A DNA stretch of 64,000 nt from Candidatus Parvarchaeum sp. (GTDB lineage Archaea > Nanobdellota > Nanobdellia > Pacearchaeales > GW2011-AR1). Made by a program: the position numbers and the translations under genes. Of the stretch, positions 45,554-62,400 are shown piece by piece. The notes under the pieces are model-generated. The model ran no database searches. It saw only the letters and a program-made list of their open reading frames with translations, and was not told where the DNA came from. The stretch's first letter is position 1, and every line of letters begins with the position of its first letter. The stretch covers positions 452 to 64,451 of the forward strand of contig DYFY01000005.1 of assembly GCA_020724955.1 (NCBI GenBank), in the 5' to 3' direction.

Positions 45554-45862
45554 AATACATGAACATGGTAAAAAATGATTACAGCAGCTGGAAATAATTT
45601 TTCAGGAGTTTAGATGTTAATTTTTCAGGGTTTACAGATCCCTTAGAAGCAACAATACCCTTGTGCATGTAAAGTAAACCCTTTAACTGCACTTCTTTAC
45701 GCTTAAATTATCTCTAAAATCTGTTGATGATTATAGCTAAACGAGCATATCTGGTTATTGGAGGCAATTTTCATGGAAATGTTATTAATGAATTTATGCA
45801 CGATTGGGAAGTTGGCTTAACAGTGCAGAAACATATTTAAATCAGGTTTAGCTAATTAGGGA

Positions 45863-46459: not shown

Positions 46460-46523
46460 TTCTATGTCACTTTTCAGTTACTACCATGGAAAGGTTTAAA
46501 TATTAGTCTTTTTCTGATTTGGT

Positions 46524-47054: not shown

Positions 47055-47055
47055 A

Positions 47056-47412
47056 ATGAAGAAGAGAGGGTATCCGAAAATAGGAGATTATTTTGGAGAT
47101 GTTGCAGGGGTGCATCAACTGGAAAATTTGGCTCCAAGAATTGGAACAAGAAATGTTCAACATTATAAATTGCTCTCAGGAAAAATAGTGGTTGTTCTTG
47201 ATCAAGATGTCGTTCATGCTGATTTGCATTGGAAAAGGCCGGAAAGAAGACTTTGCGTTGCAGGATATTTAGCCAGACCTATCAGATATTTTGGACTAAT
47301 TAAAAGAGTTGAGCTAATTCCGGATGAAGAAAAGGAGAGAGTTTGCAGGGAATTAAAAAGAATCACTGAGAGTGATGAAAGAGCTGTTGAATATATAGTA
47401 TTTTGGCAATAA
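47056..47412 (+). CDS. Hypothetical protein
   Basis: 118 aa. Starts 2 bp after the preceding stop. No motif recognised. Confidence 0.45.
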   Translation: MKKRGYPKIGDYFGDVAGVHQLENLAPRIGTRNVQHYKLLSGKIVVVLDQDVVHADLHWKRPERRLCVAGYLARPIRYFGLIKRVELIPDEEKERVCRELKRITESDERAVEYIVFWQ

Positions 47413-47417
47413 AAAAG

Positions 47418-48206
47418 TTATTCTTTTTTCTTTCTGGCTGATTTGTGTTTGCCGGAAGATTTTCTTGAATGGAGTTTAGAAAAGGTTTTTTGGGTTTCTA
47501 TAAGCTCTTTTTTCAGGTCGGAAACATTTGTTACGTAATCGCCTACTTTCCGCAGGACTGCTGTATTGAGGGTGTCAATTATTTTTTCTATTCTTTTTAA
47601 CCTGTCATCGAGGGTTTCTATTTTTGCTTCCATGGTTGTTTTCATTCCAATTATTTTTTCTACACCTTTTCTTATTTCAGCCATTTTCTCGGCGACAATT
47701 TGTTCGGAGATTTCAGAAATTATATCCGGGCTTAGTCCTGTTGACGGATAAGGGTATTGCTCTTGTTCTGGAGCGGGAGGATAATCCGGATAAACCTGTT
47801 GAGGCTGCGGAAACTGGTCATAGGAAGGATATTCAGAGGCAGGAGGGTTTTGATAGTTCTGGTTCTGCTCCTGATAATATCCTGGAGGGTAATTGTAGCT
47901 GTTATTTTCTTCAGGCTGATTCATTATTGATTGCTGCATCCCAGGAGGAATTTGTTTTGGGTAATCTCCAGTGTTTCTTTGAGGGTATTGTGAAGGAGTT
48001 TCATAATCCATGTAGCTTTCTGGTTGTTCTTGAATCGGCTCTTCCGGGTCTTTTTCCACGGCTTCTTTTATTTTTGACTGAGAAAGAGCTTCTAAGATAT
48101 CTTTGTGGGAAACTCCCTTTTCCCGAAGAATTTTTATTATCTCTTCCTCTGGCATTCCTTGCTTCTGCATTCTTTTTGTTTCATCTAATACGCTTGCTGC
48201 TACCAT
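47418..48206 (-). CDS. Three-part protein: small helical N-domain, P/Q/Y-rich low-complexity linker, C-terminal coiled coil
   Basis: N-domain GMPEEEIIKILREKGVSHKDILEAL. Linker rich in YP/QQ/PP. Coiled coil IETLDDRLKRIEKIIDTLNTAVL. Confidence 0.55.
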   Translation of the reverse strand: MVAASVLDETKRMQKQGMPEEEIIKILREKGVSHKDILEALSQSKIKEAVEKDPEEPIQEQPESYMDYETPSQYPQRNTGDYPKQIPPGMQQSIMNQPEENNSYNYPPGYYQEQNQNYQNPPASEYPSYDQFPQPQQVYPDYPPAPEQEQYPYPSTGLSPDIISEISEQIVAEKMAEIRKGVEKIIGMKTTMEAKIETLDDRLKRIEKIIDTLNTAVLRKVGDYVTNVSDLKKELIETQKTFSKLHSRKSSGKHKSARKKKE

Positions 48207-48209
48207 TTT

Positions 48210-48524
48210 TTATTTTTTCATGTGCGGCGACAAAATGTCAAGCTGTCTCTGCAAAATCATAAGCTCCTCCCGCCTGGCTGTTTCTGAGAGCTGGTCGAGT
48301 ATATTTTGGATGAATTCTCTCATTCTTATATTCTCTTCCTTCAGTTTTAAAGTCTCTTTTTTTAGTTCCTGAAGCTCTTGGTGTATATTTTCTCTGTGTT
48401 CTATAAGGCTATTGCCTATCAGGATAATGCGCTCTTTGAGGAGCTTTTGCTTTTCTTCCAAATCCTGCAAATGAAAACTTGGGTCTGGAGCTTGAGAGAG
48501 GTTTGGAGGATAATTTTCCGGCAT
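48210..48524 (-). CDS. Coiled-coil protein
   Basis: 104 aa, heptad-rich. Lies 3 bp upstream of the 47418..48206 gene on the same strand. Confidence 0.5.
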   Translation of the reverse strand: MPENYPPNLSQAPDPSFHLQDLEEKQKLLKERIILIGNSLIEHRENIHQELQELKKETLKLKEENIRMREFIQNILDQLSETARREELMILQRQLDILSPHMKK

Positions 48525-48852: not shown

Positions 48853-49170
48853 ATGAATAAAAAGGCATTAGGTGCTATTGAGATTTTGGTTTTAGCCGTT
48901 GTTTTGATTTTTTCAGCTACTATAGCTATAACCGAAGATAATGCTTACACTGAGACTTTTAAAATTAATGAATTGACTCCAAAAATTTTGAGAGGGCCTG
49001 AGGGCAATGTGGCTAGAATCGAATTCGAATTATTCCATAACTCTGATGTTTTAATTAGGCAGGGATGGAGATATGAAGATCCACTTTTCGAATCTCTCTA
49101 TCTGGCATTTATGGGTCCAGGGTTGGAGCTTTCTCCTGATATAAGAGTTGGAGGTGTTTGTGATGTTTAA
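48853..49170 (+). CDS. Prepilin-like protein (class III signal peptide)
   Basis: MNKKA/LGAIEILVLAVVLIF. Confidence 0.6.
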   Translation: MNKKALGAIEILVLAVVLIFSATIAITEDNAYTETFKINELTPKILRGPEGNVARIEFELFHNSDVLIRQGWRYEDPLFESLYLAFMGPGLELSPDIRVGGVCDV

Positions 49171-49609
49171 ACCCTCCATTGTTATTGTTTTAGTTTTAAT
49201 TATTTTGGCTATTGCACAATCTAATGCAGCAGGTCCAGAAGTAGAAAAGGAAGTTTTAGAGTTATTAAAAAAATATGAATGGGTTCCAGTTATCGTTAAA
49301 ATTCATTTTAATAATAATTTGAACTTAGACTTAATCCTACAGAATCTTAGTGATGAGGAATTTATATTAAAAGAGAAATTGCTTAGAGGAGACGGCTTTG
49401 CCGGCAATCTATCTCAGAAGGGATTAGACAAGTTGTCAGAAAATAAAGAAATTAGTTATATATATTGGGATAGGGTGGCTTACACTATAGGAGATGATTC
49501 TTCTCAAGTTAGTATTGGCCAGCCAAAAAAGGAGTTAGTTATAGTGATCTTATTGGCCATTATTTTTTTGGTGCTATTTTTCATTTATCTAAGGAGAAGA
49601 AAGACATGA
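49163..49609 (+). CDS. Secreted protein with a C-terminal TM anchor and basic tail
   Basis: Signal peptide ending AQSNA. C-terminal LVIVILLAIIFLVLFFIYLRRRKT. SD GGAGGTG upstream of the ATG at 49163. Confidence 0.5.
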   Translation: MFKPSIVIVLVLIILAIAQSNAAGPEVEKEVLELLKKYEWVPVIVKIHFNNNLNLDLILQNLSDEEFILKEKLLRGDGFAGNLSQKGLDKLSENKEISYIYWDRVAYTIGDDSSQVSIGQPKKELVIVILLAIIFLVLFFIYLRRRKT

Positions 49610-50085
49610 GATTCAACCCAAAAATTAGGATATTTTTAGTGCTTTCAGATATAGAAAATCAGCTTGATGATGATTTGTGGGGAATCGGATTGAGCATTGA
49701 CCGCTCTGTTACGTCTAGTGTCAGCGCTAAAGATAATCCTACTCCAGAATACAGGCCTAAATTGGTAATTACTTATGGAGCAAATCAGACAGATGCTAAT
49801 GCAGCCATAGAAGAAGGGATAGGAAATTCTCTGCCCGGAAATCAGATTAAGAGCAATCAGCAGATTTACTTAGTTAATGAAGAAGGGAATCATTTCTTGG
49901 GAAGTTTTGACAGAGCAACTATACTGAATAATCAAACATGGAGCTTTCATTACGCAGATAATGTAGGAGCTTTGATTGGGATGCCTTCGCTATTCAGAGT
50001 TTTGAATATTTGGGAGAATCACACTTTGTCTTATGAAGAGATAGTAAGCCAGGTGGAGAGTTTTATTAATGTGACAAGATATTAA
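49606..50085 (+). CDS. Hypothetical protein (pilus-operon member)
   Basis: 4-bp overlap with the preceding gene. No confident motif. Confidence 0.45.
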   Translation: MRFNPKIRIFLVLSDIENQLDDDLWGIGLSIDRSVTSSVSAKDNPTPEYRPKLVITYGANQTDANAAIEEGIGNSLPGNQIKSNQQIYLVNEEGNHFLGSFDRATILNNQTWSFHYADNVGALIGMPSLFRVLNIWENHTLSYEEIVSQVESFINVTRY

Positions 50086-50097
50086 GAAAGAGGGAAG

Positions 50098-52368
50098 ATG
50101 GTGTTTAAACAAGGTGCGACGTTGTATGCTGTTGAAGTTGACAGGAAGGAGGGTGAAAGCATATTATATGTTAATTATCTCGGGGCAGGATTTGTGCCTT
50201 CTCTTGCTGAAAATCCGGAAGTGATGGCGAGGACAATAGACTCTTTAATTGAGAATCCCGGAGTTTCTAGGATTGTTTTTGTCCAACAAAAAAATTATAA
50301 TTATCCGTTTGAGCAAGTGGCGTTGCTTGCCGATATAGCTCAATTGTATGTTTATTTGGTCAAACAGGAAAGAGTTTTGTCTCCTGAAAGGCTGAGCTTA
50401 TTTGGGGATGTAGGGAGATATCACAGCGAAATAAGCTATTTTATAGGGCTTTTGAGAAGCGACCCGGTTGCAAGTTATCTGGAAATTGAAAAAGCAATTG
50501 AAAAAATCAAAAAGGCAGAGGCTTCAGGAAGCTACGCAGATTTGAATTCAAAAGGCTATCTTAGATTTCTTGAAAGAATACATGACCTTTTGGAAAAAAC
50601 AAAACTTATCAGCAAAGTTAAGGATGTAGTCAAGACTTATTACGCCGGAGACAGAAGCATTTACTCAAATATATTCCGCCCGGACATAATGCCGAATTTT
50701 ACTTTTACAAGACTTGTGGCTCAGTTGCCGGAAGATGCCAAGCTGGTTGATCAATATGTGATAGATGTGGATGGAGAGGAAATTGGAGTGACTATTTTGA
50801 AAAAAGAAAATGATTCTAGTTATATTTATCACATAATGCCTCCTGAGTATATTCTGGAGGAAGAGCATCATCTGCTTTTGAATCTCGGGAAAAGTGTTTT
50901 GATTGAGCACCAGCCGAAAGCGGAGGAGTTTACAGATCCAGACAGGACGAGAGCGGTTTTTTTGAATGTCTCCAGGGATTTGCTGAGAGATTTGGCTGAG
51001 AGCAAGGGAATAAGCTTAAGCTACAAAGAATTAAACAATCTTGCAAAAATTTTAGTCCGCCAGACAATAGGGAGCGGTTTGATAGAGGTTTTGCTGATGG
51101 ATGACAGGCTGCAGGACATATTTTTAAATTCCCCGATAGCGCAAAATCCTGTTTTTGTAAGACACTCTGAATATGGAGAGTGCGTAACCAATGTTATCCC
51201 AAGTTATGAAGATTCAGATTCGTGGGCCACCAAATTAAGACTTCAGAGCGGAAGACCTTTGGATGAAGCTAATCCTATTCTTGACACTGATCTTGTTTTT
51301 GGGAAGGTGAGGGCAAGAGTGGCAGCTATACAAAGACCTTTGTCTCCAAACGGACTGGCTTATGCAATAAGAAGGCACAGGGACCAGCCTTGGACGTTGC
51401 CTTTATTCATACATAACAAGATGATTAATTCCTTTTGCGCCGGATTGTTGAGCTTTATGATAGACGGCTCAAGAACGCTGCTTATTGCGGGCACCAGAAG
51501 CTCTGGGAAAACATCTCTTCTCGGAAGTTTGATGCTTGAAATAATGCCGAAAGTCAGAGCAATAATAATAGAGGATACTTTGGAACTTCCTGTTGATTCA
51601 CTCAGGAAAATAGGCTACAACATTCAGAGAATGAAGGTCAGGAGTGCGTTGACAGAGACAACTAGCGAAGTTGAAGCTTCTGAGGGAATAAGGGCAAGTT
51701 TGAGACTTGGAGACAGCGCATTGATTGTTGGAGAAGTGAGAAGCAGTGAAGCCAAAGCATTGTATGAAGCTATGAGAGTGGGAGCATTGGCGAATGTGGT
51801 TGCGGGCACGATTCACGGAGCTTCTCCCTATGGCGTTTTTGACAGGATTGTCAATGATCTCGGAGTGCCTATAACGAGCTTTAAAGCCAGCGATTTGATT
51901 GTTGTCGCCAATCCAATAAAAACTCCTGACGGACTGCACAGCATGAAAAGAGTTGTGCAGGTTTCTGAAGTCAGAAAACACTGGACAAAAGACCCTAATG
52001 AGGAAAAAGGTTTTGTTGATCTTTTAAGATACAATGTGGAAAAAGATGAGCTTGAGCCAACTGATGAGCTGATAAATGGAGAGTCTGAAATAATAAAAGA
52101 AATAGTGTCTAAGGTGAAAGGATGGGCGGGAAATTGGGATGCAATTTATGACAATATTCTGCTTAGAGGAAGCATAAAACAGGAGATTGTAAACATGGCG
52201 AAGAAATTCAGCAAACCAGAATTAATGGAAGCAAAATTTAACTCTATGAGCAATGATGCTTTTCATAAAATCAGCGACGATGTTACAAAAGAGTTTGGTC
52301 TGCCATTAAGCGAAAAAGTATTTCCTGCTTGGAAAGACTGGGCTTTGAAAGAAATCAAAAAGTTTTGA
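50098..52368 (+). CDS. Type IV pilus/archaellum-type secretion ATPase (FlaI/VirB11/GspE family) with a long N-terminal extension
   Basis: Walker A GTRSSGKTS, Walker B IIIEDTLEL, GEVRSSEA, and His box GTIHG. Confidence 0.88.
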   Translation: MVFKQGATLYAVEVDRKEGESILYVNYLGAGFVPSLAENPEVMARTIDSLIENPGVSRIVFVQQKNYNYPFEQVALLADIAQLYVYLVKQERVLSPERLSLFGDVGRYHSEISYFIGLLRSDPVASYLEIEKAIEKIKKAEASGSYADLNSKGYLRFLERIHDLLEKTKLISKVKDVVKTYYAGDRSIYSNIFRPDIMPNFTFTRLVAQLPEDAKLVDQYVIDVDGEEIGVTILKKENDSSYIYHIMPPEYILEEEHHLLLNLGKSVLIEHQPKAEEFTDPDRTRAVFLNVSRDLLRDLAESKGISLSYKELNNLAKILVRQTIGSGLIEVLLMDDRLQDIFLNSPIAQNPVFVRHSEYGECVTNVIPSYEDSDSWATKLRLQSGRPLDEANPILDTDLVFGKVRARVAAIQRPLSPNGLAYAIRRHRDQPWTLPLFIHNKMINSFCAGLLSFMIDGSRTLLIAGTRSSGKTSLLGSLMLEIMPKVRAIIIEDTLELPVDSLRKIGYNIQRMKVRSALTETTSEVEASEGIRASLRLGDSALIVGEVRSSEAKALYEAMRVGALANVVAGTIHGASPYGVFDRIVNDLGVPITSFKASDLIVVANPIKTPDGLHSMKRVVQVSEVRKHWTKDPNEEKGFVDLLRYNVEKDELEPTDELINGESEIIKEIVSKVKGWAGNWDAIYDNILLRGSIKQEIVNMAKKFSKPELMEAKFNSMSNDAFHKISDDVTKEFGLPLSEKVFPAWKDWALKEIKKF

Positions 52369-53316
52369 TTACCAGATTTTCTTGAATTTTTCTTGTGCTT
52401 TGATTAGTTCGGAAGTCATTGCTTCATCGAAAGGAGTGTGGGATCCTAAAGGGACTATTACCAGTTTTGATTTTGGCAAAGCTTTATGCAAATCCCATGC
52501 AGATGACATTGGGCAAATAGTATCATAACGTCCTTGTATTATATATACAGGGATATTTTTTATTTTGTCTGCATTATTCAGAATGAGATTTTCAGGGCTT
52601 ATAAAAAAGTTGTGTAATGCGTAATGACATTCTGTTTTGGCGAAGGAAATCTCTTTTTTTGAATCAAGGAAACTGGATTTTCTTTTTTTTGGAATTATTG
52701 ACATAATCGCTTCTTCCCAATTGCTCCAGCGTTTTGCCGCTTCAGTTTGAGTTTTTTTTGATGTCAATAACCTGTAATAATGATGCAGTATCCTGTCTTG
52801 ATTATTTTTTGGAATTATTGAAACAAATTTTTCCCATTCATCTGGCCAGATTTCTGAAGCTCCTCCTGGTTTAAACAGCCAGTCATTTTCTTTTTTTCTT
52901 CCAAGGCATACACCTCGGATTATGATTCCTTTTACTGGCCTGGGATAGCTTATTGCATAGAGTAGCGCCAGGAGCGATCCCCAGCTTCCTCCTGTAACGA
53001 GCCATTTTTTTATGTCGAGATGATTTCTCAATTTTTCCAAATCTTCTACAAGGTGCAAGGCAGTGTTTTCTCTAAGCTCTGCGAATGGCCTGCTTTTTCC
53101 TGCGCCACGCTGATCAAGAAGTATTATTCTGTAAAATTTCGGGTCCAGGAGCCTGCGGTATTCAGGTATTATTCCAACTCCAGGACCTCCGTGCAGAAAA
53201 ATTGCCGGCTTTCCTTTCGGGTTTCCGACTTGTTCATAGTGCAAAGTATGTATTTTTGAAACTTTTAAGAAACCTTCGTCATAGGGTTTTATTTTTGGAA
53301 AAAGAGATGACTTCAT
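52369..53316 (-). CDS. pip: Proline iminopeptidase (alpha/beta hydrolase)
   Basis: HTLHYEQVGNPKGKPAIFLHGGPG, GGSWGS nucleophile elbow, and a C-terminal GSH. Confidence 0.88.
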   Translation of the reverse strand: MKSSLFPKIKPYDEGFLKVSKIHTLHYEQVGNPKGKPAIFLHGGPGVGIIPEYRRLLDPKFYRIILLDQRGAGKSRPFAELRENTALHLVEDLEKLRNHLDIKKWLVTGGSWGSLLALLYAISYPRPVKGIIIRGVCLGRKKENDWLFKPGGASEIWPDEWEKFVSIIPKNNQDRILHHYYRLLTSKKTQTEAAKRWSNWEEAIMSIIPKKRKSSFLDSKKEISFAKTECHYALHNFFISPENLILNNADKIKNIPVYIIQGRYDTICPMSSAWDLHKALPKSKLVIVPLGSHTPFDEAMTSELIKAQEKFKKIW

Positions 53317-55472
53317 GAAAGTATTCCTCCTAAAGATATCACTGCCAGAAGGCTTAACGAAATTATTGATATAAAAGCAGTAATTGTGTAAAGCAGGATT
53401 CCATGTTTCAGGTTTTTTGCCAGTTCGTGTTTTTCTTTGAGAGTGTCCTGCCCTGAATCTACTGTGACCAAAGTTTTTGACAGAATAAAAATTATCTCTA
53501 TTATGTATATTCCTACTGATATCTGAATAAAATACGGGGGAATCATTGAAGCCACATCAAAGAAGCTTGTTATGTTAACTATTGAGAATGCGCCAAGCTG
53601 CTGATTTCCGAGGCCCTGGGAAGTAAGAGCCTGAAGGGTGTTAAGTATAAGAGTTATCATTGTTGAAAGCCCGACGACTATCCCTGCCAGCAACGGAGCC
53701 AGAAAGACCATATTTGACTTCATGTCTGAAACTATTTCGGCGAGCAGGTCTTTAAGGCGCTCGTTTATTTTCTGTATGTTTTTTATATACTCTGAGATAG
53801 ACATCAATGATCTGGCTGCAACCTGCAGACCTTTTTTTACTGATTCAACGAGAATTTTCATACTTGTTGCTATGAGGGGGGATGGAAAAGAAAGAATGGC
53901 CCCTCTTTTTTTGTTAAATATGGCTTCTTCCAAAGACATTCCGAGCTGTTGGATGTTTTGGTTTACAATAGAAAAGAAGTGTTGTGTTTTTTGTCCTTGT
54001 GTTGTTGAAGCAACTTTTGCGAAAGCTATTTCTGCAGGAGTTCCGTCTCCCAAGCGGTTTCCAAGCTGAAACAATGAGTTGGTGAATTCGGCTTCTAGTT
54101 CTTTTGTGTCTTCGCGGGATTTTATCAAAGAAGAGGTTTTCATCCTGTATGAGATTGCAAAAAAGAAAGCTATTGAAAGAGGGATTAAAAGGCTGAGAAG
54201 AACGGCCAGCAGACCAAACGGACCTACTGTTCCTGCTGAAGAAGATTTAAAATCAAAAAGCATTAGATTTGAGACAAGCGGAATTCCTAAGTTTTCAAAA
54301 GTGTAGTCTTTCTGCAGATTAAATGCAGAGACGAAAAAATCCGACTGAAACAGAAAAGGAGCGAATCCTATGAGAATCAGGGGAGAGACCAGAATAAAGG
54401 AGAGTGCCCATGGAGTTTTTGACCTAAACCTGTAATATTCCGGGTTCAATTCTATTACAGATGACTCTCCATGGCCTCCGGGGCGTTTCAGCAGAACCTC
54501 TGAAGCCATATAAAAAACAAAGAAGGGTATTATGACGTTAAAAAGAATGAAGACGTGTTGCCATTGTATCAGGCCTCCGAGAAGGGTTGATGCCAACGGA
54601 AGAAGAGCTAAACCAAGAGTGGGGAGTATTATTCCGAGCATATAGATGTTTGTCAAGGGGCTTCTTATTGATCTGGAAAAGCGAAGCATTTTTTCGTAAA
54701 CGCCGTCCAGAATTACCTGAAGGGATTTTTCCAAAATCTGAACGCGTCTTGATTCAGAGGGTTCAAAAAGAGAGGACTCTATTAGATGGAATGCCTCAAC
54801 AAATTCGGGGGCATAGTCGCGCCATGTTTCCAGATAGTTGTCCAGCGATTGCTTGAGTGTTGAGAATTTTGATGTTTCCACGTCGTAGAATATTTTTCTG
54901 AAATCCAGCGAGAGCGGAGGGGCGAGATTTTTCGCTGCAAATTCTATGGCTCTTTCGAGGTTTGATGTGTGCTTCATGTAAACTACAACATAGAGAATTG
55001 CGGGCACCATCTGCGAGGAAGCTTTTAATCTCCAAATATTTGCAAGGCGCTTCGGCATTGTGTATGCGTAATAGAACACAAAAACACTTGTTGTGAGCCC
55101 GAGAAAAACAAGAAGCAACGGAAGCGAGCCTGTAATCAGAAATATAGCTGCGGATATGGATAGGGTAAGGAAAAAAATCAGAATCATTGAGAATACTGCC
55201 AGAGACATGGCTTCTGCGGGAGAAACTTCTAGATGGGCTATTCTCAGAGAGCGCTCTATTTTTGAGCTTTCTTTAGGCGAGAGTTTTATTTTCAGCAAAC
55301 TGCCGAGGGTTTTTGTCCAGCGCTCATAATTAGAAAGCTGGGGGAGCATGTCTTTTTTAAACTGCAAATATTCTTTTGATGACCCATAATCATCCATAGG
55401 GTTTTGGTAGAGCTGAGACTCTATTTTTGCTCCGTATTTGCGCAGAATTTCATCTGTTGTCAGATTAGACAT
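53313..55472 (-). CDS. FlaJ/TadC/PilC-like polytopic platform protein
   Basis: 719 aa. Alternating cytoplasmic helical domains and TM bundles. Lies in the locus with the ATPase, pilins and peptidase. Confidence 0.65.
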   Translation of the reverse strand: MSNLTTDEILRKYGAKIESQLYQNPMDDYGSSKEYLQFKKDMLPQLSNYERWTKTLGSLLKIKLSPKESSKIERSLRIAHLEVSPAEAMSLAVFSMILIFFLTLSISAAIFLITGSLPLLLVFLGLTTSVFVFYYAYTMPKRLANIWRLKASSQMVPAILYVVVYMKHTSNLERAIEFAAKNLAPPLSLDFRKIFYDVETSKFSTLKQSLDNYLETWRDYAPEFVEAFHLIESSLFEPSESRRVQILEKSLQVILDGVYEKMLRFSRSIRSPLTNIYMLGIILPTLGLALLPLASTLLGGLIQWQHVFILFNVIIPFFVFYMASEVLLKRPGGHGESSVIELNPEYYRFRSKTPWALSFILVSPLILIGFAPFLFQSDFFVSAFNLQKDYTFENLGIPLVSNLMLFDFKSSSAGTVGPFGLLAVLLSLLIPLSIAFFFAISYRMKTSSLIKSREDTKELEAEFTNSLFQLGNRLGDGTPAEIAFAKVASTTQGQKTQHFFSIVNQNIQQLGMSLEEAIFNKKRGAILSFPSPLIATSMKILVESVKKGLQVAARSLMSISEYIKNIQKINERLKDLLAEIVSDMKSNMVFLAPLLAGIVVGLSTMITLILNTLQALTSQGLGNQQLGAFSIVNITSFFDVASMIPPYFIQISVGIYIIEIIFILSKTLVTVDSGQDTLKEKHELAKNLKHGILLYTITAFISIISLSLLAVISLGGILS

Positions 55473-55559
55473 TTTACCTCTTATTTATACGTTAGACTGG
55501 AAAAGGAAAGTTATAAATCTAACCACATAATTTATAACTTTGTGAAAATTAGGATTCAG

Positions 55560-55712
55560 ATGAAAAAAAAGGGGCAACTTTGGGATACTCTGATTCCATG
55601 GATTATCGGGATAGCTGTGTTGATTCTTGTAATTTTGATATATGTCCTGCTTGATGAAAGAGGGCGGGGCGCAATTGAGTTTTTTAAGAACCTGCTGAGG
55701 TTTGGAAGATGA
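55560..55712 (+). CDS. Mini prepilin-like protein (50 aa)
   Basis: MKKKG/QLWDTLIPWIIGIAVLILVILIYVLL. Confidence 0.55.
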   Translation: MKKKGQLWDTLIPWIIGIAVLILVILIYVLLDERGRGAIEFFKNLLRFGR

Positions 55713-56527
55713 ACAGGAAGGGAATAGCTGTCAGCGAAATGCCTAAGATGTTAATAGCTCTTATTGTTATGGCCGGAGTTATTATTGCTGTAGGGCTTAT
55801 GCTCGGATTTGGACCCGAGGGAATCGGAAACAAATTTGACATATTTTTTCAGAATTTCAACGAGGATGTTGAAGAAAAGGATAGCATAGTCTTCAGGTAT
55901 GACATTTTTTCTGGAGAAGTTAAGTATCTTGATGCAGACTGGAAAGATTTCCCTAAAGATAATGGTGCTGTCAGACTGGAAAGATTTGAATTTACTGAAG
56001 ACCAAATTAAGAAGGATTTTATTGCCTATTACTCTGGTGAAAGGGAAGATGTTGAAATTGTTTTGAGCGAGGGTGCTAGATTTGTTCTTCTTGATTCTGC
56101 GAGTGCTGCACTTTTTGAAGATGAACTAAAAGTTATTTTCCATACATTTCGAAGGAGTGCTAGCAACCAAGCTCAATTGAAGAGTTCTCAAAATCCTTTA
56201 GTAATAGGCTTTTACGGAGCTGCTTTTCCTGGGCAGAAAGGCATATACTCGACTAAGAGATGGGAGATGGTAGTGGATTATAATGGAGAAATTTTTGTTG
56301 ATAAAAATCCAATTGGATGGCCAGGAGAGCATGTATATGAGATAATTGAAAAAAGAACCATTGCCGAAGAATTTGACAAACTTCCTCAGGAAGATTATGA
56401 TCTGATTGTCAAGACTGCGGAGGAATTTAGAAACAGCGTTCTCGATGATAAGATAAGCCTTACAGGAGCTGGAGATTATGATGTTGATTTAATAGACAAT
56501 TTTTTGGTGGTAAGGGTAAATGAATAA
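55709..56527 (+). CDS. Prepilin-like protein
   Basis: MNRKG/IAVSEMPKMLIALIVMAGVIIAVGL. ATGA overlap with the previous gene. Confidence 0.65.
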   Translation: MNRKGIAVSEMPKMLIALIVMAGVIIAVGLMLGFGPEGIGNKFDIFFQNFNEDVEEKDSIVFRYDIFSGEVKYLDADWKDFPKDNGAVRLERFEFTEDQIKKDFIAYYSGEREDVEIVLSEGARFVLLDSASAALFEDELKVIFHTFRRSASNQAQLKSSQNPLVIGFYGAAFPGQKGIYSTKRWEMVVDYNGEIFVDKNPIGWPGEHVYEIIEKRTIAEEFDKLPQEDYDLIVKTAEEFRNSVLDDKISLTGAGDYDVDLIDNFLVVRVNE

Positions 56528-56633
56528 AAAAGCAGTTTTTGGAGACTCGTTAGCGGGATGGATTTTGCTAATAGCGTTTTTTATTCTCGCTTTGGGAGCT
56601 GTTTATTTTTTACTAAAGCAGATTGGAGGATGA
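56520..56633 (+). CDS. Mini prepilin-like protein (37 aa)
   Basis: MNKKA/VFGDSLAGWILLIAFFILALGAVYFLLKQIGG*. Below the ORF-track cutoff. Overlaps the previous stop. Confidence 0.45.
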   Translation: MNKKAVFGDSLAGWILLIAFFILALGAVYFLLKQIGG

Positions 56634-56667
56634 AAATATTATAAACAGAGATTGTCTTGATTTTAAG

Positions 56668-57702
56668 ATGAAGGAAAAAAGAGGAGAGGTGAGTTCTTTT
56701 CAGGTGATTACTATAGTGCTTTCGATTGTCGGACTTTTTTTTCTTTTGGGGTTTTTGTATTTTGCTTTTGGAGATTCTGGGCAAGCCGGGAGCAGAGAAG
56801 CATGCAAGCTTTCTGTTGTGGCGAGAGCGACTGCTCTTGATGAACTGCAGGCGACAGTTCCTTTGAAGTGCACTACAGAAAAAATCTGCATTACAGGCAA
56901 ATTATTCGGTGGAGAGTGCGGGCAGTTTGCCGGAGAGGAAAATGTAAGAACAGTCAGATTGCCGAGAGATGTAAAAGAAGCAGCGAGAATTATTGAAAGA
57001 GAGTCTGCTAACGCGATGTTTGATTGTTGGAATATGATGGGGCAGGGAAAGTTGGATTTGTTCGGGAAGTTTCCTGAAAAAATTTTCGGCAGCGGCGGAG
57101 AAGCTACATGCGTGATTTGCAGCAGGATTGCAATCGCAGAAGATGTGCAGGAAAGGGAAAATTATCAAGAAATTCTAGATGAGATAGATTTGAACAGATA
57201 TCTTTCCAATGAAAATGTTCCGGGAACGGGGAAGAGTTATTGGAATACTATTGTTGATGACAGCTTTAATGTTGCTCCTTCTATAGAAAATTTGAATTTA
57301 GCTCCAAACGAAGATAAAACTATAAAAATTTCCGGGATTAGCGATAATCAGATTGCTTTTGTATTTTCTCAAGTTAGGGCTATTAAAGTAGAAGATGCTC
57401 TAAAAAATTTTGTGGGGATTGCTGTAGGAGGCAGTGTCGGACTTGGAGGGTTAAAAGCTGTTAAATTTTTGTTGTTAACTCCGCAAGGGCTTGTAACCAC
57501 GGCGGTTGTTGGAGGGATACCTTTGGCAGCGGTCGGATTCAATGCCTATGAAGGAAGGAGCGCAGCCGCTGCATATTGCGGACCATTTACTTCTGCGGCA
57601 GAGAGCGAAGACAGAAACGGATGTTCTTTAGTTCAGGCAGTCAATTACAATGTGCAAGATATCAATTCAGTCTGCAAGGGAGGAATTCAGGGAGCTCCAT
57701 GA
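56668..57702 (+). CDS. Prepilin-like protein, Cys-rich globular domain
   Basis: MKEKRG/EVSSFQVITIVLSIVGLFFLL. Many Cys residues in the body. Confidence 0.65.
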   Translation: MKEKRGEVSSFQVITIVLSIVGLFFLLGFLYFAFGDSGQAGSREACKLSVVARATALDELQATVPLKCTTEKICITGKLFGGECGQFAGEENVRTVRLPRDVKEAARIIERESANAMFDCWNMMGQGKLDLFGKFPEKIFGSGGEATCVICSRIAIAEDVQERENYQEILDEIDLNRYLSNENVPGTGKSYWNTIVDDSFNVAPSIENLNLAPNEDKTIKISGISDNQIAFVFSQVRAIKVEDALKNFVGIAVGGSVGLGGLKAVKFLLLTPQGLVTTAVVGGIPLAAVGFNAYEGRSAAAAYCGPFTSAAESEDRNGCSLVQAVNYNVQDINSVCKGGIQGAP

Positions 57703-58328
57703 GTTTTAAAAGAGGAGAGTTTTCGGCAGAAATAGTTTCTATTGTAATTGCTGCGATAGGAATAATAATTATTTTAGGAGTTGCGGGAGTCATTCTTTAT
57801 TCAAATTTTACCGAGGAGCAGAGGGCTGCGAAAAAGACCATTGAGAGCATTGTTGGAAAAATTAAAAACTTGAAAGACGGAGAAACGGGAAGATTTGCTG
57901 TTCAGGGATTTAAGAATTCAGAAAACTGGTATTTAGTCGGATTTGATTCAAGAGATTCTTTGGATGACAAGCCAGGAAGGTGCGCTTTTGAGAGTTGTAT
58001 TTGTATTTGTGATTTTAATAATGAAGGCATTCAGCTTCCTGCTTCAAGACAAGTATTGGTTGATTCCTGCCAAAATAATGGGTTTTGCAGATTTTTTGAT
58101 AACAAGGATGTTCTTATTAAGGATAGCTCTCTTAAAATTTCCGGAGGGATACCTTATAAAAAATGTATATCTCTCAGAGAAAGTTTGCAAGAGTTGATAG
58201 TTTTGAAAAATGAGACTAAAATTATTATCACAAAAGGATATGACATAAGCTCCCCATCTATCAGTGATGAAGGAGATTATTTCCATTTTGAAGAGTGTTA
58301 TCATGGAGCATGGGATGCTGCCAGCTAA
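57699..58328 (+). CDS. Prepilin-like protein, Cys-rich
   Basis: MSFKRG/EFSAEIVSIVIAAIGIIIIL. CAFESCICICDF and DSCQNNGFC motifs. ATGA overlap with the previous gene. Confidence 0.65.
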   Translation: MSFKRGEFSAEIVSIVIAAIGIIIILGVAGVILYSNFTEEQRAAKKTIESIVGKIKNLKDGETGRFAVQGFKNSENWYLVGFDSRDSLDDKPGRCAFESCICICDFNNEGIQLPASRQVLVDSCQNNGFCRFFDNKDVLIKDSSLKISGGIPYKKCISLRESLQELIVLKNETKIIITKGYDISSPSISDEGDYFHFEECYHGAWDAAS

Positions 58329-58373
58329 TGATTTTTTAGTTAGCTTTATATTTCTTAGAAAGCTATTTAGTTT

Positions 58374-58793
58374 ATGAATAAAAGAGCGGAGAGCAGTGAT
58401 TTGCTTCAGTGGACTGTTATTTATGTTGTGATTTTTTTGGTGTTTTTTGCAGGGGCTTATTTTATCATTGACAGGAATTTTGACAATGCCGGATTTTGGG
58501 AGGAATTTTATGCCAAGGAAATAGCGAGAGTTATTAATTTTGCTGAATCCGGGGATGTAGTGATGCTGGATGTTACTAGAGCAACGAGAATAGCTGCTAA
58601 AAACGGAAAGAATGCCGGAAATGCGGATGAGGTTTTTAAGTTTGATGAGGAAGCAGGCGAGGTAATAATAAGCCTAAGGCAGTCTGGAGGGACAGGGTAC
58701 AGCTATCTGAGCGATAAAAAAATTGAAAGCTACAGAGTGGAATTGGTTTCGGGGGAAATAAACAAAGACAGATTAATTTTGGTGATAAAATGA
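58374..58793 (+). CDS. Prepilin-like protein
   Basis: MNKRA/ESSDLLQWTVIYVVIFLVFFAGAY. Confidence 0.6.
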   Translation: MNKRAESSDLLQWTVIYVVIFLVFFAGAYFIIDRNFDNAGFWEEFYAKEIARVINFAESGDVVMLDVTRATRIAAKNGKNAGNADEVFKFDEEAGEVIISLRQSGGTGYSYLSDKKIESYRVELVSGEINKDRLILVIK

Positions 58794-59263
58794 TTGTCAA
58801 AATGAATAAAAAGGGAGACGGAGGGGATGTTATGATGTTTTTTGCATTTTTATTTTTGATTATTATTATTTTGACAGGTTTGTGGCTTGGAATATTTGCT
58901 TTTTTTGGCGACGGATATGATTTTAGAAGAGCAGAAGCGGAAATAATGGCTGACAAGATTTCTAACTGCTTTGGAGAAAAAGGAATTTCCAAATTGCTGG
59001 AAGGAAGTTTTACGGAACAGCTAAAAAGAGAGTGCGGGTTCAATGACAATATCGAAAAGGAAAGATTGGTTTATTTAAGAAATCTTGAAGATGAAACTGA
59101 GCGGTTTGCAGGAGTTTTGGATTATAAAAACCAGTGCTTTTTTGAGGGAGCTGAAAGGAATAGGAACTACCCTGTATGCGTAAAGTTTGAATTTTCCAAT
59201 GGCGAAGAGAGGTTTGAAGTTATTACGGGAAGCAAAGCCAATGAGAGGAGGAGAGCAGCGTGA
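58790..59263 (+). CDS. Prepilin-like protein
   Basis: MNKKG/DGGDVMMFFAFLFLIIIIL, using the alternative ATG at 58802. The ATG at 58790 overlaps the previous stop. Confidence 0.6.
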   Translation: MIVKMNKKGDGGDVMMFFAFLFLIIIILTGLWLGIFAFFGDGYDFRRAEAEIMADKISNCFGEKGISKLLEGSFTEQLKRECGFNDNIEKERLVYLRNLEDETERFAGVLDYKNQCFFEGAERNRNYPVCVKFEFSNGEERFEVITGSKANERRRAA

Positions 59264-59271
59264 ATTTTTAT

Positions 59272-59814
59272 ATGGAGAAGCGGGGAAAGACAGGACAGAT
59301 AATAACAACTATTCCAGTCATGATTTTGATTTTTATTATCATGGGTATTTTTGTTCTGTTGTCGGCGAGTATTTTTCAGCTGAAGAAGGCAGAGAACAAA
59401 GTTCCTGACAAAATTGTGGCTGAGAGTTTCAAAGACTCTTTTCTTCTAGAAGAGATTGAAATAGAAGGTGAGAAGATTTTATTGTTTGATTTTATTGCTG
59501 ATATTGAGGGCGTTGAAGAAAGAGATTTCGCCAGAGGGATTTTGAAAGGGTATTTTGAGAAGACTGCCGAGGATGGGGAATGCATGTTTTTAATGCTTCA
59601 ATCTGGAAGCTTCAGAAATGAGCTTGCAGAATTCAAAAAGGAAAATGGAGAAGTCTCTGATTTTGGATTGTTAAAAAATGATGACAGCAGATTTATTTTT
59701 CACGACTTGTATGAGCTAGGGGGATATATGAAAGAAATAAGGGCAGATTTTGGGAAAAGCGACAGAAAAATCTCTTATTATTACGGGGAGTGCCTGGAGG
59801 TTGTGTATGAATAA
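59272..59814 (+). CDS. Prepilin-like protein
   Basis: MEKRG/KTGQIITTIPVMILIFIIMGIF. The track start at 59260 is a GTG. Confidence 0.6.
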   Translation: MEKRGKTGQIITTIPVMILIFIIMGIFVLLSASIFQLKKAENKVPDKIVAESFKDSFLLEEIEIEGEKILLFDFIADIEGVEERDFARGILKGYFEKTAEDGECMFLMLQSGSFRNELAEFKKENGEVSDFGLLKNDDSRFIFHDLYELGGYMKEIRADFGKSDRKISYYYGECLEVVYE

Positions 59815-60304
59815 CAGCAGAATGGACAAAAGAGGGCATGTCCCGACGTTTCTTCTATTGATAGGGGCTATTGTGCTTGTTGTTTCCGCTTTGTTCAGCT
59901 TTGCTATCTTTGAGAACAACTCTGAAGAACTATCTTCAGAAATTTCGGATATGGTAAGAGAAGTGGAGTTTAAACAGGCATATGTTGAAAAGATTTTGGA
60001 GCTAGCGGTTAACGAGGCTGTTTTAGAGGCGGAAGAACAGGATTTTGTTGAAAGTTTTAAAAGAAAATTCCTGAGTGAAGTGGCTTCAAGGAATCCTGGA
60101 GATGACAGGTTTGGGAATTTTTTTGTCAAGATAGAGAGAGGAGAGTTTGGAGTTTACGAAGAGCCAGAGCGAGAGGGGGTTTATTCAATAGAGATTAGAG
60201 AAATTTTTGTTGACAGCGCATTCGGCGTCAATGAGATGAGAAGATATTTTAACTTGGAGGCGAGATTTAATAAAGAAGGGATTTTGGATGATGCAAACCC
60301 TTGA
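59807..60304 (+). CDS. Prepilin-like protein
   Basis: MDKRG/HVPTFLLLIGAIVLVVSALF, using the alternative ATG at 59822. The ATG at 59807 overlaps the previous gene. Confidence 0.6.
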   Translation: MNNSRMDKRGHVPTFLLLIGAIVLVVSALFSFAIFENNSEELSSEISDMVREVEFKQAYVEKILELAVNEAVLEAEEQDFVESFKRKFLSEVASRNPGDDRFGNFFVKIERGEFGVYEEPEREGVYSIEIREIFVDSAFGVNEMRRYFNLEARFNKEGILDDANP

Positions 60305-60409
60305 TAAATTGAATTTGCAGGGAGTTTATGTCAGATTGGGAATCTGGATTAATGTTGCAATAAGGTTTATAAATAAAGATGGCTTTGAGGGAATATGCTT
60401 AAAGGGGCG

Positions 60410-60853
60410 ATGAACAAGAAAGCGCAGGAGGGGCTTACTCTTACAACTTTGTTGCTTATTGTGCTTGGAGTTGTTGTTGTTGTTGTGATTATTTTAGGAG
60501 CTACAGGTGCTTTTGATTTTATTTTTGGAAAGATTGAAGTTCTTCCTGGACAGAGTTTAGAGAGTGCTGTGCAGTCTTGCAAGATAGCTGCTGAAAATAA
60601 TCTTAAGACTGATTTTTGTGTTAATTTGAAAAATGTAGAGCTTAATGGAAAAGAGCAGTATGTGACTTGCAATTATTTGAAGAAGGATTATTTAGGTGAA
60701 GTGGATGAAATTGATTGTGGAAGTCTTGCTCCAAATGTGAAAGAGTTTTGTGAGAGTAAGAAGCTTAAGGCAGGAAAGGATTTAGTCAATGGAGAACTTT
60801 GTCCTGAACAAAAGAGCCCAACTGGTGGAGCGCTAGGTCCTCCAGCTCCCTAA
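60410..60853 (+). CDS. Prepilin-like protein (last gene of the pilin operon, Cys-containing)
   Basis: MNKKA/QEGLTLTTLLLIVLGVVVVVVIIL. Confidence 0.65.
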   Translation: MNKKAQEGLTLTTLLLIVLGVVVVVVIILGATGAFDFIFGKIEVLPGQSLESAVQSCKIAAENNLKTDFCVNLKNVELNGKEQYVTCNYLKKDYLGEVDEIDCGSLAPNVKEFCESKKLKAGKDLVNGELCPEQKSPTGGALGPPAP

Positions 60854-61026
60854 TTAACTAGATTTTTAAAGACATAATTCTAAGTGTTGTTATGAGTGAT
60901 TATGGTTTTCCTGAAAAGCGCAGGAAAGGAAAGGACAAGAGAAGAGACAAGAAGAAACATCCCTACAGGAGAGGCGGGAAGTTTCGAGCTGGAAATGTAA
61001 GGGAAAGCGGCAAGGATTAAGTTTAT

Positions 61027-61275
61027 ATGTTGGTTATGCATAAGTTATATATGGATGAATCAACAATTCTTTTGAAGAAAGATGTGATAATTTTGCTTAA
61101 GCAAGCTAAAGACAGCCCCCGACAGACGTATAATGAATTGCTTCGAAAGGTCCTTAGTTTGTATCTCCAAATGAAGAAGGCAGATGAATATGATAAATTT
61201 CTACATGAGATACAAAAGTCCAAGATGAGAGAGGTTTGGGATAATAAATATGATGAAATATGGGAAAAAGTATAG
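61027..61275 (+). CDS. Antitoxin-like protein (MazE/PemI position)
   Basis: Overlaps the downstream MazF-like gene. C-terminal tail REVWDNKYDEIWEKV. The ATG at 61051 is an alternative start. Confidence 0.55.
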   Translation: MLVMHKLYMDESTILLKKDVIILLKQAKDSPRQTYNELLRKVLSLYLQMKKADEYDKFLHEIQKSKMREVWDNKYDEIWEKV

Positions 61276-61570
61276 TTTTGGAGATGTTATCCTGACCGAG
61301 GTTCAGTTTACAGACACTTTTGAATTAAGGACAAAGCCTGCAGTAGTGCTTTTTGAGGAATTCAATAACATTGTGGCGGCAGCCATTACGAGCAACCCTC
61401 ACATGAAAGGAATCCCTCTTACTGAAGAAGAGGGCATGATTCAAGACAGCATAATAAAACTAAACTATATCTTTACTATTTCCGAAAAGATGGTTAAAAA
61501 AGAGTTGTTTTCTCTGTCTAAGAGAAAAAAAGAAATTGTAAAGAGAGAACTTATTAAGAGATTTGCATGA
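61250..61570 (+). CDS. mazF: MazF/PemK-family toxin
   Basis: GDVILTEVQFTD...RTKPAVVL...ITSN pattern typical of PemK-like folds. Confidence 0.7.
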   Translation: MMKYGKKYSFGDVILTEVQFTDTFELRTKPAVVLFEEFNNIVAAAITSNPHMKGIPLTEEEGMIQDSIIKLNYIFTISEKMVKKELFSLSKRKKEIVKRELIKRFA

Positions 61571-62400
61571 TGGAAGAATATATATTTTTATTTGCTCTGG
61601 CTTTTGTCTGGATAATTTTCGCGATTGTGCAGGATTTTAGAACTCGGGAGGTTTCCAACTGGCTGAACTTCAGCCTGATTGCTTTTGTTCTTGCTTACAG
61701 AGCATTTTATGCGGTTATACATAAAGAGTTTGGCTTTTTTATTTTAGGGGTTTTCGGGGTGTTGCTTTTTGTTGGACTGGCTTATGCTTTATATTATGGA
61801 AGGGCTTTTGCAGGCGGCGATGCAAAACTTCTTATGGGACTTGGCGGAATATTGCCATATCAAGGAGTTTTTGATGTTTTTTATTACGGAATAGCTTTTG
61901 TTTTTATTTTGTTTTTGGCTGGTGCAATTTATAGCCTGATTTACACTATTTATCTGGCATGGAAAAATTGGAAGCCATTTTCGGCTGAGTTTAAAGAGAG
62001 GTTTGTTTTCAGCAAGAACTATGTTATCGTTTGCTTGGTTTTAGCTATTCTGCTGCAGGCAGCGATTTACAATTTTGATTTTCCTGATTTTTTTGGCCTG
62101 TTGTCTTTGATGATTGCAATACTTCCTGTGCTTTATATTTATACCAAGGCTGTTGAAGCGGGCTGTTTGGTTGTCTGGAAAACTCCGGGAGAGCTGCAGG
62201 AGGGAGACTGGCTTGAGAGAGAGGTTATTGTTTCAGGAAAAAAGATAAAGAAGAGCGTTCATGGGCTTAGCAAAAGAGAAATTGAATTTTTGAAAAAACA
62301 CAAGACAAAGGTGCTGATAAAGGAAGGCATTCCATTCACTCCTGCCTTTTTAATTGCTTTGTTAGTTGGGGTTTGGATTTGGATGAAGTTTTTTTCCTGA
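61567..62400 (+). CDS. A24-family prepilin/preflagellin peptidase (PibD/FlaK-like)
   Basis: First Asp context IVQDFRTREVSN and second Asp context FAGGDAKLLMG. Polytopic. Confidence 0.8.
   Translation: MMEEYIFLFALAFVWIIFAIVQDFRTREVSNWLNFSLIAFVLAYRAFYAVIHKEFGFFILGVFGVLLFVGLAYALYYGRAFAGGDAKLLMGLGGILPYQGVFDVFYYGIAFVFILFLAGAIYSLIYTIYLAWKNWKPFSAEFKERFVFSKNYVIVCLVLAILLQAAIYNFDFPDFFGLLSLMIAILPVLYIYTKAVEAGCLVVWKTPGELQEGDWLEREVIVSGKKIKKSVHGLSKREIEFLKKHKTKVLIKEGIPFTPAFLIALLVGVWIWMKFFS

Follow-up and report, generated by a model that had tools for sequence, protein, structure and literature searches.

What kind of machine would a very small groundwater archaeon of the Pacearchaeota/Woesearchaeota group build from a locus with a footprint of approximately 15 kb, or roughly 2% of its 735-kb genome (87% complete)? 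DPANN archaea are host-dependent, and to our knowledge no member of the Pacearchaeota or Woesearchaeota has been cultivated. The locus lies on contig C10, of which we analyzed one stretch of 64,000 nucleotides (hereafter the window), and a second locus of the type IV filament (T4F) kind is found on contig C12 of the same genome. An earlier note on this DNA, made from the sequence alone, had read the region at 48853–62400 as a large type IV pilus-like locus.

The four parts that define a T4F system are all predicted to be encoded here: the ATPase, the platform, the sequence pattern of class III-type subunits, and the A24 peptidase were each recovered when the tests for the superfamily were applied. 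We read the locus as a genuine and complete gene set for a predicted pilus-like surface machine, and very likely as a T4F assembly machine of a divergent kind that is conserved in Pacearchaeota/Woesearchaeota-type DPANN. Such DPANN loci are already represented in the literature (Hamm et al., 2024; Sivabalasarma & Albers, 2026).

The secretion ATPase

A 756-aa secretion ATPase is encoded on the + strand at 50098–52368, identified by its family match, its motifs, and its orthologs. The earlier description of this protein as a FlaI/VirB11-type ATPase holds: it matches PF00437 (T2SSE) in Pfam (1.4e-12), and all of its catalytic motifs are intact, with Walker A at residue 465, the Asp box at 489, Walker B at 541, and the His box at 571. 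The core spans approximately residues 300–620 and carries conserved extensions of about 290 aa at the N-terminus and about 130 aa at the C-terminus. Affiliation was judged from relative HMM and PDB scores. Among NCBIfam models, FlaI (131 bits) and TadA (128 bits) score highest and VirB11 reaches 56 bits; the closest PDB matches are afGspE (2OAP), CpaF, and FlaI. On these scores the protein sides with FlaI, TadA, afGspE, and CpaF, with VirB11 and TrbB well below, and not with the non-pilus secretion ATPases, a grouping that the earlier note had named as grounds for abandoning the pilus reading.

The top rank of FlaI among the NCBIfam models could point to a variant of the archaellum, a rotary motility organelle. 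However, the 131 bits of the locus ATPase fall far short of the FlaI equivalog cut-off of 550, while the ATPase on contig C12 reaches 387. Archaellin (PF01917) has no matches in the genome, against controls that were matched in four archaea, and the Pfam and NCBIfam models for archaellum accessory proteins are unmatched by the locus proteins at the thresholds used. The earlier observation that archaellum-specific genes are absent is thus upheld by a genome without archaellin, and we consider a motility organelle extremely improbable.

A divergent platform protein

The gene at 53313–55472 (− strand) encodes a 719-aa polytopic protein that homologs and a structural model identify as a platform of the divergent GspF/PilC/TadC/FlaJ type. 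The protein itself has no Pfam or NCBIfam match, and profile searches of the PDB with the alignments A1 and A2 returned nothing. However, PF00482 (T2SSF) is matched by 19 of 49 full-length homologs, with a best value of 3.2e-10. An AF2 model (pLDDT 84.5) gives local Foldseek matches to the cytoplasmic domains of EpsF and OutF (probability 1.00, TM 0.70–0.74); whole-chain E-values are poor. An internal duplication gives a weak signal (E 0.002, probability 14%), as does an hhalign comparison with the two platform proteins on contig C12 (E 0.02–0.04). Transitive homology and the modeled domain-level fold match together argue for a remote GspF/TadC-type platform. The FlaJ/TadC-like nature claimed for this protein therefore stands, through the T2SSF matches of its homologs and its EpsF/OutF-type bundle, but without a direct family match. 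A proline iminopeptidase gene overlapping the platform gene is present in 4 of 80 loci and was rejected as a part of the system.

The pilin-like array

Eleven ORFs in this region had been credited with class III-type N-termini, and all eleven were recovered. Each begins with M-x(1–3)-[KR][KR]-[GA] and runs on into a hydrophobic helix some 19 residues long. The strict form of the motif occurs in 36 ORFs genome-wide, 11 of them inside the window, and in none of the reversed genome or of three triplet-shuffled genomes. Membership in the system is a separate matter. Ten of the eleven are conserved; the ORF at 48853–49170 (+ strand), which combines the class III-like N-terminus MNKKA with a TM segment, is lineage-specific. 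Neither it nor its neighbors at 49148 and 49606 has a homolog in 80 related loci, and the three ORFs are therefore regarded as an insertion outside the conserved system. The earlier count of eleven subunits is accordingly reduced to ten.

These ten genes, here called a to j, lie on the + strand and are tightly packed, as the earlier note had described, with junctions of −4, −8, 34, −4, 45, 8, 8, 7, and 105 nt. They represent ten distinct families, and their order from a to j, followed by the peptidase gene, is fixed in dozens of relatives. The first, a (55560–55712; 54 of 80 loci), encodes a 50-aa mini-pilin-like protein beginning MKKKG↓QLWDT, where the arrow marks the predicted cut. This protein recurs in distant genomes and is a candidate helix-only subunit in the style of Flp or EpdE; its predicted KG↓Q site is similar to what we take to be the cut site of EpdE. 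A second mini-pilin-like protein, the 37-aa product of c (56520–56633; MNKKA↓VFGDS), fell under the size threshold of the ORF list and was recognized by direct reading of the sequence. Between them lies b (55709–56527; 272 aa, MNRKG), the most variable member, with counterparts at the same position ranging from about 190 to 760 aa.

The best conserved large subunit is d (56668–57702; 344 aa, MKEKRG), a Cys-rich pilin-like protein. Besides its N-terminal helix it has an alpha/beta head, as well as a hydrophobic segment rich in Gly and Ala at residues 254–299, and its unbiased MAFFT alignment (A3) gives the consensus MxxKKGELTxxQI with nearly invariant Cys residues. Structure prediction of the pilin heads, proposed in the earlier note, was carried out for d and was productive in part: the model is confident (pLDDT >90 over residues 10–200), but the fold has no Foldseek match in the PDB with a probability above 0.1. 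The remaining pilin-like products are e (57699–58328; 209 aa, MSFKRG, 8 Cys), f (58374–58793; 139 aa, MNKRA), g (58802–59263; 153 aa, MNKKG), h (59272–59814; 180 aa, MEKRG, family consensus KxG↓QIGxT), i (59822–60304; 160 aa, MDKRG, family consensus KKG↓D/H-I-P), and j (60410–60853; 147 aa, MNKKA). The last of these is frequently duplicated in relatives and has the most classical pilin-like N-terminus, KKA↓QEGLTLTTLLLIVLG.

Across orthologs, positions −3 and −2 are K or R in every family and position −1 is mostly G, within the limit to G, A, or S set there by the rule of the cross-family motif alignment; positions +1 to +6 are family-specific. The ten proteins have no match to PF07790 or Flp, and only chance-level matches otherwise, in Pfam and NCBIfam. 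In most families, the hydrophobic core is also set apart from the predicted cut site by several polar or charged residues, an uncommon feature in archaeal pilins. This last feature, found here between the KKG site and the core, together with the absence of pilin family matches, is what would be seen if the N-termini were uncleaved signal anchors, and the array merely ten ordinary type II membrane proteins beside a pilus motor. A signal anchor, however, needs no Gly or Ala after the basic pair, a residue that all ten families keep in dozens of genomes; moreover, the strict motif is absent from the shuffled controls, and the array of relatives ends with an A24 peptidase. We therefore hold uncleaved anchors to be very improbable and continue to treat the ten proteins as predicted class III-type subunits.

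The prepilin peptidase

The gene at 61567–62400 (+ strand) encodes the A24 prepilin peptidase claimed in the earlier note, a 277-aa protein that matches PF01478 (1.3e-11) and retains both catalytic Asp residues (D23 and GGD85). It is the sole match in the genome. In relatives the peptidase gene follows j; here an antitoxin/MazF pair (61027–61570) is inserted between the two. This pair occurs in none of 80 loci and was rejected as a system part. An apparent second peptidase upstream on the reverse strand of relatives was likewise rejected: these hits are ERCC4 nucleases, false positives produced by profile drift.

An upstream module and its spread among relatives

A conserved module at 42700–48524 lies outside the range of the earlier note (48853–62400) and was overlooked there. 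It contains three paralogous polytopic membrane proteins, all on the + strand: m170 (42700–43212), m198 (45863–46459), and m176 (46524–47054). The first has no Pfam or NCBIfam family, and in this genome an insertion carrying an NTase and an AAA ATPase (43246–45553) lies between it and the second. Of 80 near loci, 64 have homologs of m170 upstream of the ATPase. Two coiled-coil-like proteins follow on the − strand. In the larger, cc262 (47418–48206), a P/Q/Y-rich linker joins a small helical N-domain to a coiled-coil-like region at the C-terminus, and its matches are weak ones of coiled-coil type only (EzrA, DivIVA, prefoldin); of the 80 near loci, 71 have it next to the ATPase, as do all 16 distant loci. 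The smaller, cc104 (48210–48524), occurs in 72 of the 80 near loci and again in all 16 distant loci; its gene in relatives lies immediately upstream of the ATPase gene, in divergent orientation. The order of three membrane paralogs, cc262, cc104, ATPase, and platform recurs in 16 of 16 distant genomes. From gene neighborhood, the coiled-coil proteins and membrane paralogs probably belong to the machine as well.

Of 401 high-quality genomes examined in the class, 393 carry a full-length ortholog of the ATPase, with identity of about 50% or more along the whole protein; by genera, the count is 275 of 280. The pilin array stands beside the ATPase module in some lineages and is unlinked from it in others; d was found in 10 of 10 distant genomes lacking an adjacent array. 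Because it is near-universal in relatives, the system is probably important for host-dependent life.

The same near-universality, in a clade of reduced genomes, would also fit an apparatus for DNA or nutrient uptake, a role that the earlier note had suggested beside host attachment; it would resemble a competence pseudopilus and provide an auxotrophic symbiont with nucleotides. In bacteria, DNA uptake is served by multi-pilin sets such as ComGC-GG. On the other side, the ATPase reaches only 39 bits against the NCBIfam ComGA model, none of the subunits has a DNA-binding domain detected by Pfam or NCBIfam, and ComEC (PF03772) was not found. The absence of ComEC removes one prop of the uptake idea, short of excluding it because the genome is 87% complete; taken with the other points, it leaves uptake quite improbable.

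Proposed mechanism and role

Filament assembly and function are predicted here from genes alone; among sequencing runs, the locus was found in DNA runs only, and its reads are absent from three metatranscriptomes of the same study. In the mechanism that we propose, the single A24 peptidase would cut the subunits after the Gly or Ala, and a hexamer of the ATPase would dock on the platform and pull processed subunits from the membrane. The subunits would then polymerise, through the helices at their N-termini, to give a surface filament or a short pseudopilus. The shaft may consist of one abundant subunit, for which the 50-aa helix-only a and the often-duplicated j are candidates, and a priming or tip complex may be made up of the subunits that are Cys-rich or variable (b, d, e, and g).

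A short pseudopilus or piston might instead secrete other class III-signal proteins or display them on the surface, in the manner of the T2SS or the Sulfolobus bindosome assembly system, with no long adhesive pilus. Ten low-copy families in a fixed order resemble sets of pseudopilins or minor pilins more than a major-pilin locus. The genome holds approximately 25 further class III-type proteins, several of them 450–680 aa, as possible cargo, and the conventional pilus locus on contig C12, with its Pilin_N pilins, could be the true pilus. It has also been proposed that class III binding proteins functionalise T4F machines (PMC13705601). Some resemblance to Bas proteins exists, in that the ATPase matches BasE weakly and h matches BasB faintly, but the respective values are only 71.6 bits (cut-off 1000) and E 0.056. 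Further, no gene for a substrate-binding protein lies in the locus, and the helix-only a and c suit shaft subunits of the Flp/EpdE type. We consider a secretory or display piston somewhat unlikely. We infer that the predicted pilus-like machine most likely serves to contact host cells or to attach to them.

It is also conceivable that the C10-type locus represents a distinct and as yet unnamed archaeal T4F subclass, near-obligatory in Nanoarchaeia-type DPANN (98% of sampled genomes); we regard this as possible rather than probable. If so, module 1, with its three membrane paralogs, two coiled-coil proteins, long ATPase, and fused platform, would constitute a new motor or anchoring architecture. 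Module 2, with its ten families, unmatched head folds, Cys-rich subunit bearing a Gly/Ala-rich segment, and hypervariable second subunit, would be a host-contact organelle that sets host specificity.

The machine is a strong candidate contact apparatus, since genomes of 0.5–2 Mb keep it in approximately 98% of cases; in the present genome it occupies about 15 kb and is accompanied by some 36 class III-type substrates and one peptidase. Routine annotation overlooks the platform as well as the ten subunits, and comparative studies therefore under-count such systems. With the gene order and family definitions reported above, the whole cassette could be recognized.

Comparison with known systems

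The Epd pilus (system 1), encoded by the 11-gene epd cluster of Methanococcus maripaludis (PMC13705601), resembles the present locus in combining an ATPase, a platform, many pilin-like genes, and a dedicated A24 peptidase, and its small pilin without a globular domain is similar in layout to the helix-only a and c. In system 1, however, two separate genes encode platforms beside an ATPase of roughly 500 aa, an arrangement seen here on contig C12. The C10 locus instead combines coiled-coil proteins (CCPs) and membrane paralogs with a 756-aa ATPase and one platform of 719 aa, which PF00482 does not detect.

A likeness to bacterial Tad/Flp systems is apparent in the ATPase, which matches the TadA model and CpaF structures, in the TadB label given by JGI to some platform homologs, and in the helix-only a and c, which recall Flp. 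However, the TadA score of 128 bits stands against a cut-off of 373, and no Flp match was obtained at E up to 1. Unlike Tad/Flp, the locus has no secretin or TadZ, and the archaeal envelope has a single membrane. The archaellum belongs to the same superfamily, with FlaI as the best model for the ATPase and FlaK for the peptidase, the latter at 33.9 bits against an NCBIfam cut-off of 330. The Bas system of the Sulfolobales (BasEF/BasABC) likewise joins a T4F-type ATPase and platform to small pilin-like proteins, perhaps without a long filament; it has three subunit families to the ten found here, and the BasE and BasB matches are those given above.

Close counterparts are the CCP-CpaF-TadC loci that Hamm et al. 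(2024, Nat Commun, PMC11291902) report as conserved across cluster-2 DPANN. According to that paper, carriers include Pacearchaeota and Woesearchaeota, and proteomics of Ca. Nanohaloarchaeum antarcticus detected several proteins of such loci, coiled-coil ones included. Pili-like appendages have also been imaged on ultrasmall groundwater episymbionts (PMC7906910). The ten-family array, the two mini-proteins, the A24 peptidase within the locus, and the three membrane paralogs set the present locus apart from the descriptions in the portions of PMC11291902 drawn on here. As in the loci described there, coiled-coil protein genes here adjoin a CpaF-like ATPase and a TadC-like platform; cc262 and cc104 are likened to the published proteins by position, and cc262 is the probable CCP of DPANN pilus-like loci. 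That paper also describes two loci per genome, a picture matched here by contigs C10 and C12.

Core components of a type IV filament-like locus

The window carries a type IV filament-like locus that is both real and complete, and of a kind conserved among DPANN archaea; the four core type IV filament (T4F) parts, their conservation and their linkage are each supported by sequence or by a model. The window corresponds to positions 452-64451 of contig C10 in a 735-kb genome of 22 contigs, 87% complete. This genome contains no archaellin, in line with the earlier note, which recognised no archaellum-specific genes, and no ComEC within that 87%. The DNA of the window was detected in subsurface and groundwater metagenomes, and the closest homologs of the ATPase and platform occur in MAGs labelled Pacearchaeota, Woesearchaeota or Nanoarchaeota.

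The secretion ATPase (756 aa; 50098-52368, + strand) matches PF00437 and retains the catalytic motifs: Walker A at residue 465 (GTRSSGKT), an Asp box at 489, Walker B at 541 (ALIVGEVR) and a His box at 571. Its top NCBIfam models are FlaI (cut-off 550) and TadA (cut-off 373), with lower scores for BasE (72 bits) and TrbB (62 bits), and in PDB the highest scores go to A. fulgidus GspE (2OAP, 97 bits), CpaF (79) and FlaI (67), against 24 for VirB11. Because both sets of scores favour FlaI, TadA, GspE and CpaF over VirB11 and TrbB, the enzyme is an archaeal/Tad-type filament ATPase, not a conjugation ATPase, and an equivalog of none of these. A non-pilus secretion ATPase, the alternative set out in the earlier note, finds no support in these values (VirB11 56 bits, against FlaI 131 and TadA 128). 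Extensions of approximately 290 residues at the N-terminus and 130 at the C-terminus flank the known ATPase core, and orthologs conserve the full length. In a sample of 401 high-quality genomes over the phylum, all belonging to the same class, full-length orthologs (E <= 1e-100), mostly single-copy, occur in 393 genomes and 275 of 280 genera. One ortholog, P0083 (1260 aa), is an intein-containing version of the pilus ATPase, with intein/LAGLIDADG domains (PF14528, PF14890).

The 719-aa membrane protein at 53313-55472 (- strand) has no sequence match in Pfam, NCBIfam or PDB, profile searches included. A phmmer search of 1.84 billion representatives recovered 1061 relatives; among 49 diverse relatives of full length (24-72% identity), 19 match PF00482 (T2SSF; best 3.2e-10). 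Its AlphaFold2 model is confident (pLDDT 84.5, pTM 0.81); Foldseek returned no whole-chain match, but EpsF (2VMA, 2VMB, 3C1Q) and OutF (5NBG) are matched locally, over their cytoplasmic domains, with probability 1.00, TM 0.70-0.74 and rmsd ~3 Å, and a match to the PilC model in 3JC8 has probability 0.57. The N- and C-terminal halves align weakly with each other (E 0.002). We accept this protein as a divergent platform protein; the FlaJ/TadC-like assignment proposed earlier holds by way of the homologs and the EpsF/OutF-like fold, and not through a direct family match.

A proline iminopeptidase (alpha/beta hydrolase; 52369-53316) lies between these two genes, abutting the ATPase stop and overlapping the platform stop by 4 nt. 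It occupies that place in just 4 of 80 loci around ATPase orthologs, drawn from GTDB species genomes (463 species have a relative), and is for this reason probably a passenger.

Class III proteins and the pilin-like cassette

The earlier note counted 11 class III signal-peptide proteins, and every one of the 11 starts does read M-x-[KR][KR]-[GA] followed by a ~19-residue hydrophobic helix; however, the ORF at 48853 has no homolog in the 80 loci. The same is true of the ORFs at 49148 and 49606, and all three are an insertion between cc104 (a coiled-coil-like protein gene) and the ATPase. One of the three, the 159-aa ORF at 49606-50085, has a paralog at 66% identity on contig C21 (~7590-8033). 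The remaining ten genes (a to j) form the tight + strand operon described previously, at 55560-60853, with junctions of -4, -8, 34, -4, 45, 8, 8, 7 and 105 nt; the 37-aa ORF at 56520, under the ORF-list threshold, was found by direct reading of the sequence. A strict scan (M-x0-3-[KR][KR][GA] and then a hydrophobic window of 17 uncharged residues) recovered 36 ORFs genome-wide, 11 of them inside the window, and 0 in each control, namely the genome reversed and three triplet-shuffled versions; the class III motif count is therefore far beyond chance.

Iterated profile searches found each family in 42-54 of the 80 loci, those without a given family being mostly truncated. Near relatives keep the order platform(reverse)-a-b-c-d-e-f-g-h-i-j-peptidase, and more distant ones platform-a-(j)-e-c-d-f-g-h-i-j-peptidase. 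All ten families have K/R at -3 and -2 and mostly G at -1, a column that is partly circular, as the alignment rule allowed G/A/S only. Each family has its own residues at +1 to +6 (d, E-L-T-S-x-Q; h, Q-I-G-x-T; i, D/H-I-P; j, Q-E-L-S), and when 43 d proteins are aligned with MAFFT free of that rule, the consensus is MxxKKGELTxxQI. None of the ten proteins matches the Pilin_N, Flp or archaellin models. Two families, a (50 aa) and c (37 aa), are mini-proteins made up of a helix only, and both turn up even in distant genomes; the length of b, whose position does not change, ranges over ~190-760 aa among relatives. The best-conserved family is d (56668-57702), with nearly invariant Cys; it is modelled as an N-terminal helix with an alpha/beta head (pLDDT >90 for residues 10-200), a head fold without a match in PDB. 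Residues 254-299, predicted with low confidence, form a Gly/Ala-rich hydrophobic stretch with conserved glycines inside this otherwise extracellular Cys-rich subunit.

Of 16 distant genomes of the class (ATPase ~50-56% identical), 6 have the array next to the platform and 10 lack it within ~8 kb; all 10 of the latter encode a d homolog elsewhere. A HIT-like protein downstream of the locus (63161-63787) is also near the cassette end in 13 related loci.

The A24 prepilin peptidase proposed earlier (61567-62400, + strand) matches PF01478 and has D23 and the GGD85 motif. No other A24 gene was found in the genome, so this one presumably serves all ~36 substrates. An insertion at 61027-61570, between j and the peptidase, consists of a small antitoxin-like ORF and a PemK/MazF-like toxin gene (PF02452); the pair overlaps the peptidase start by 4 nt and is present in 0 of the 80 loci.

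Upstream module

The system appears to extend beyond the 48853-62400 range first proposed, given conserved genes at 42700-48524. Coiled-coil-like cc262 (47418-48206, - strand) and cc104 (48210-48524, - strand) accompany the ATPase in 71-72 of 80 loci, and three paralogous polytopic membrane proteins, m170 (42700-43212), m198 (45863-46459) and m176 (46524-47054), in 64, 64 and 35, respectively. All 16 of the 16 distant genomes keep one gene order: m-m-m, cc262, cc104, ATPase, platform. These five proteins have no family assignment, their sole matches being of the chance coiled-coil type, and may be uncharacterised machine parts. The membrane paralogs are contiguous in relatives; here, m170 and m198 are separated by two inserted genes (43246-45553), one nucleotidyltransferase-like and the other for a 481-aa AAA-type ATPase.

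In the inferred mechanism, the A24 enzyme would cleave subunits after G/A, and ATP would drive their polymerisation on the platform. The shaft subunit would be a or j, with b, d, e, g, h and i forming a putative tip or priming complex and the coiled-coil and membrane proteins serving as accessory parts; the likely role is host attachment.

Comparison with known systems

A second locus in this genome, at 10733-22906 on contig C12, is a conventional archaeal T4F locus with Pilin_N-type pilins (KRG|ISPVVA...), two separate T2SSF platform genes and a 506-aa ATPase scoring 387 bits against the FlaI model over its full length, along with more pilin-like genes. Since it bears the layout of 'system 1' (Sivabalasarma & Albers, PMC13705601), the locus in the window is the second, divergent system of the genome and does not correspond to the Epd-like one. 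Another product of the C12 locus is a class III-signal protein of 677 aa that is Cys-rich and has repeated CDDGN..GDGCS modules. Elsewhere, nearly identical tandem pilin paralogs (MFNKKGLSDIVTNVLIILLV...) lie on C22 (84899-86970), and two ~460-aa proteins on C2 (~59689) and C19 (~3311), with almost identical class III N-termini, may be recent duplicates or assembly redundancy.

In the literature consulted on such loci, no description was found of the ten-family cassette in its order, of a peptidase within the locus or of the trio of membrane paralogs. Pili-like appendages have been imaged on ultrasmall groundwater episymbionts (He et al., 2021, PMC7906910). Hamm et al. (2024, PMC11291902) describe two conserved type IV pilus-like loci (CpaF, TadC) with coiled-coil proteins in cluster-2 DPANN, including Pacearchaeota and Woesearchaeota, with proteomic support from Ca. 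Nanohaloarchaeum antarcticus. Sivabalasarma and Albers (2026, PMC13705601) found T4F components in 2942 Nanobdellati genomes, where ATPase and platform genes are adjacent and pilins mostly scattered. Given these DPANN loci, the kind of locus described here is already known; the locus itself is under-annotated and of biological importance to the clade.
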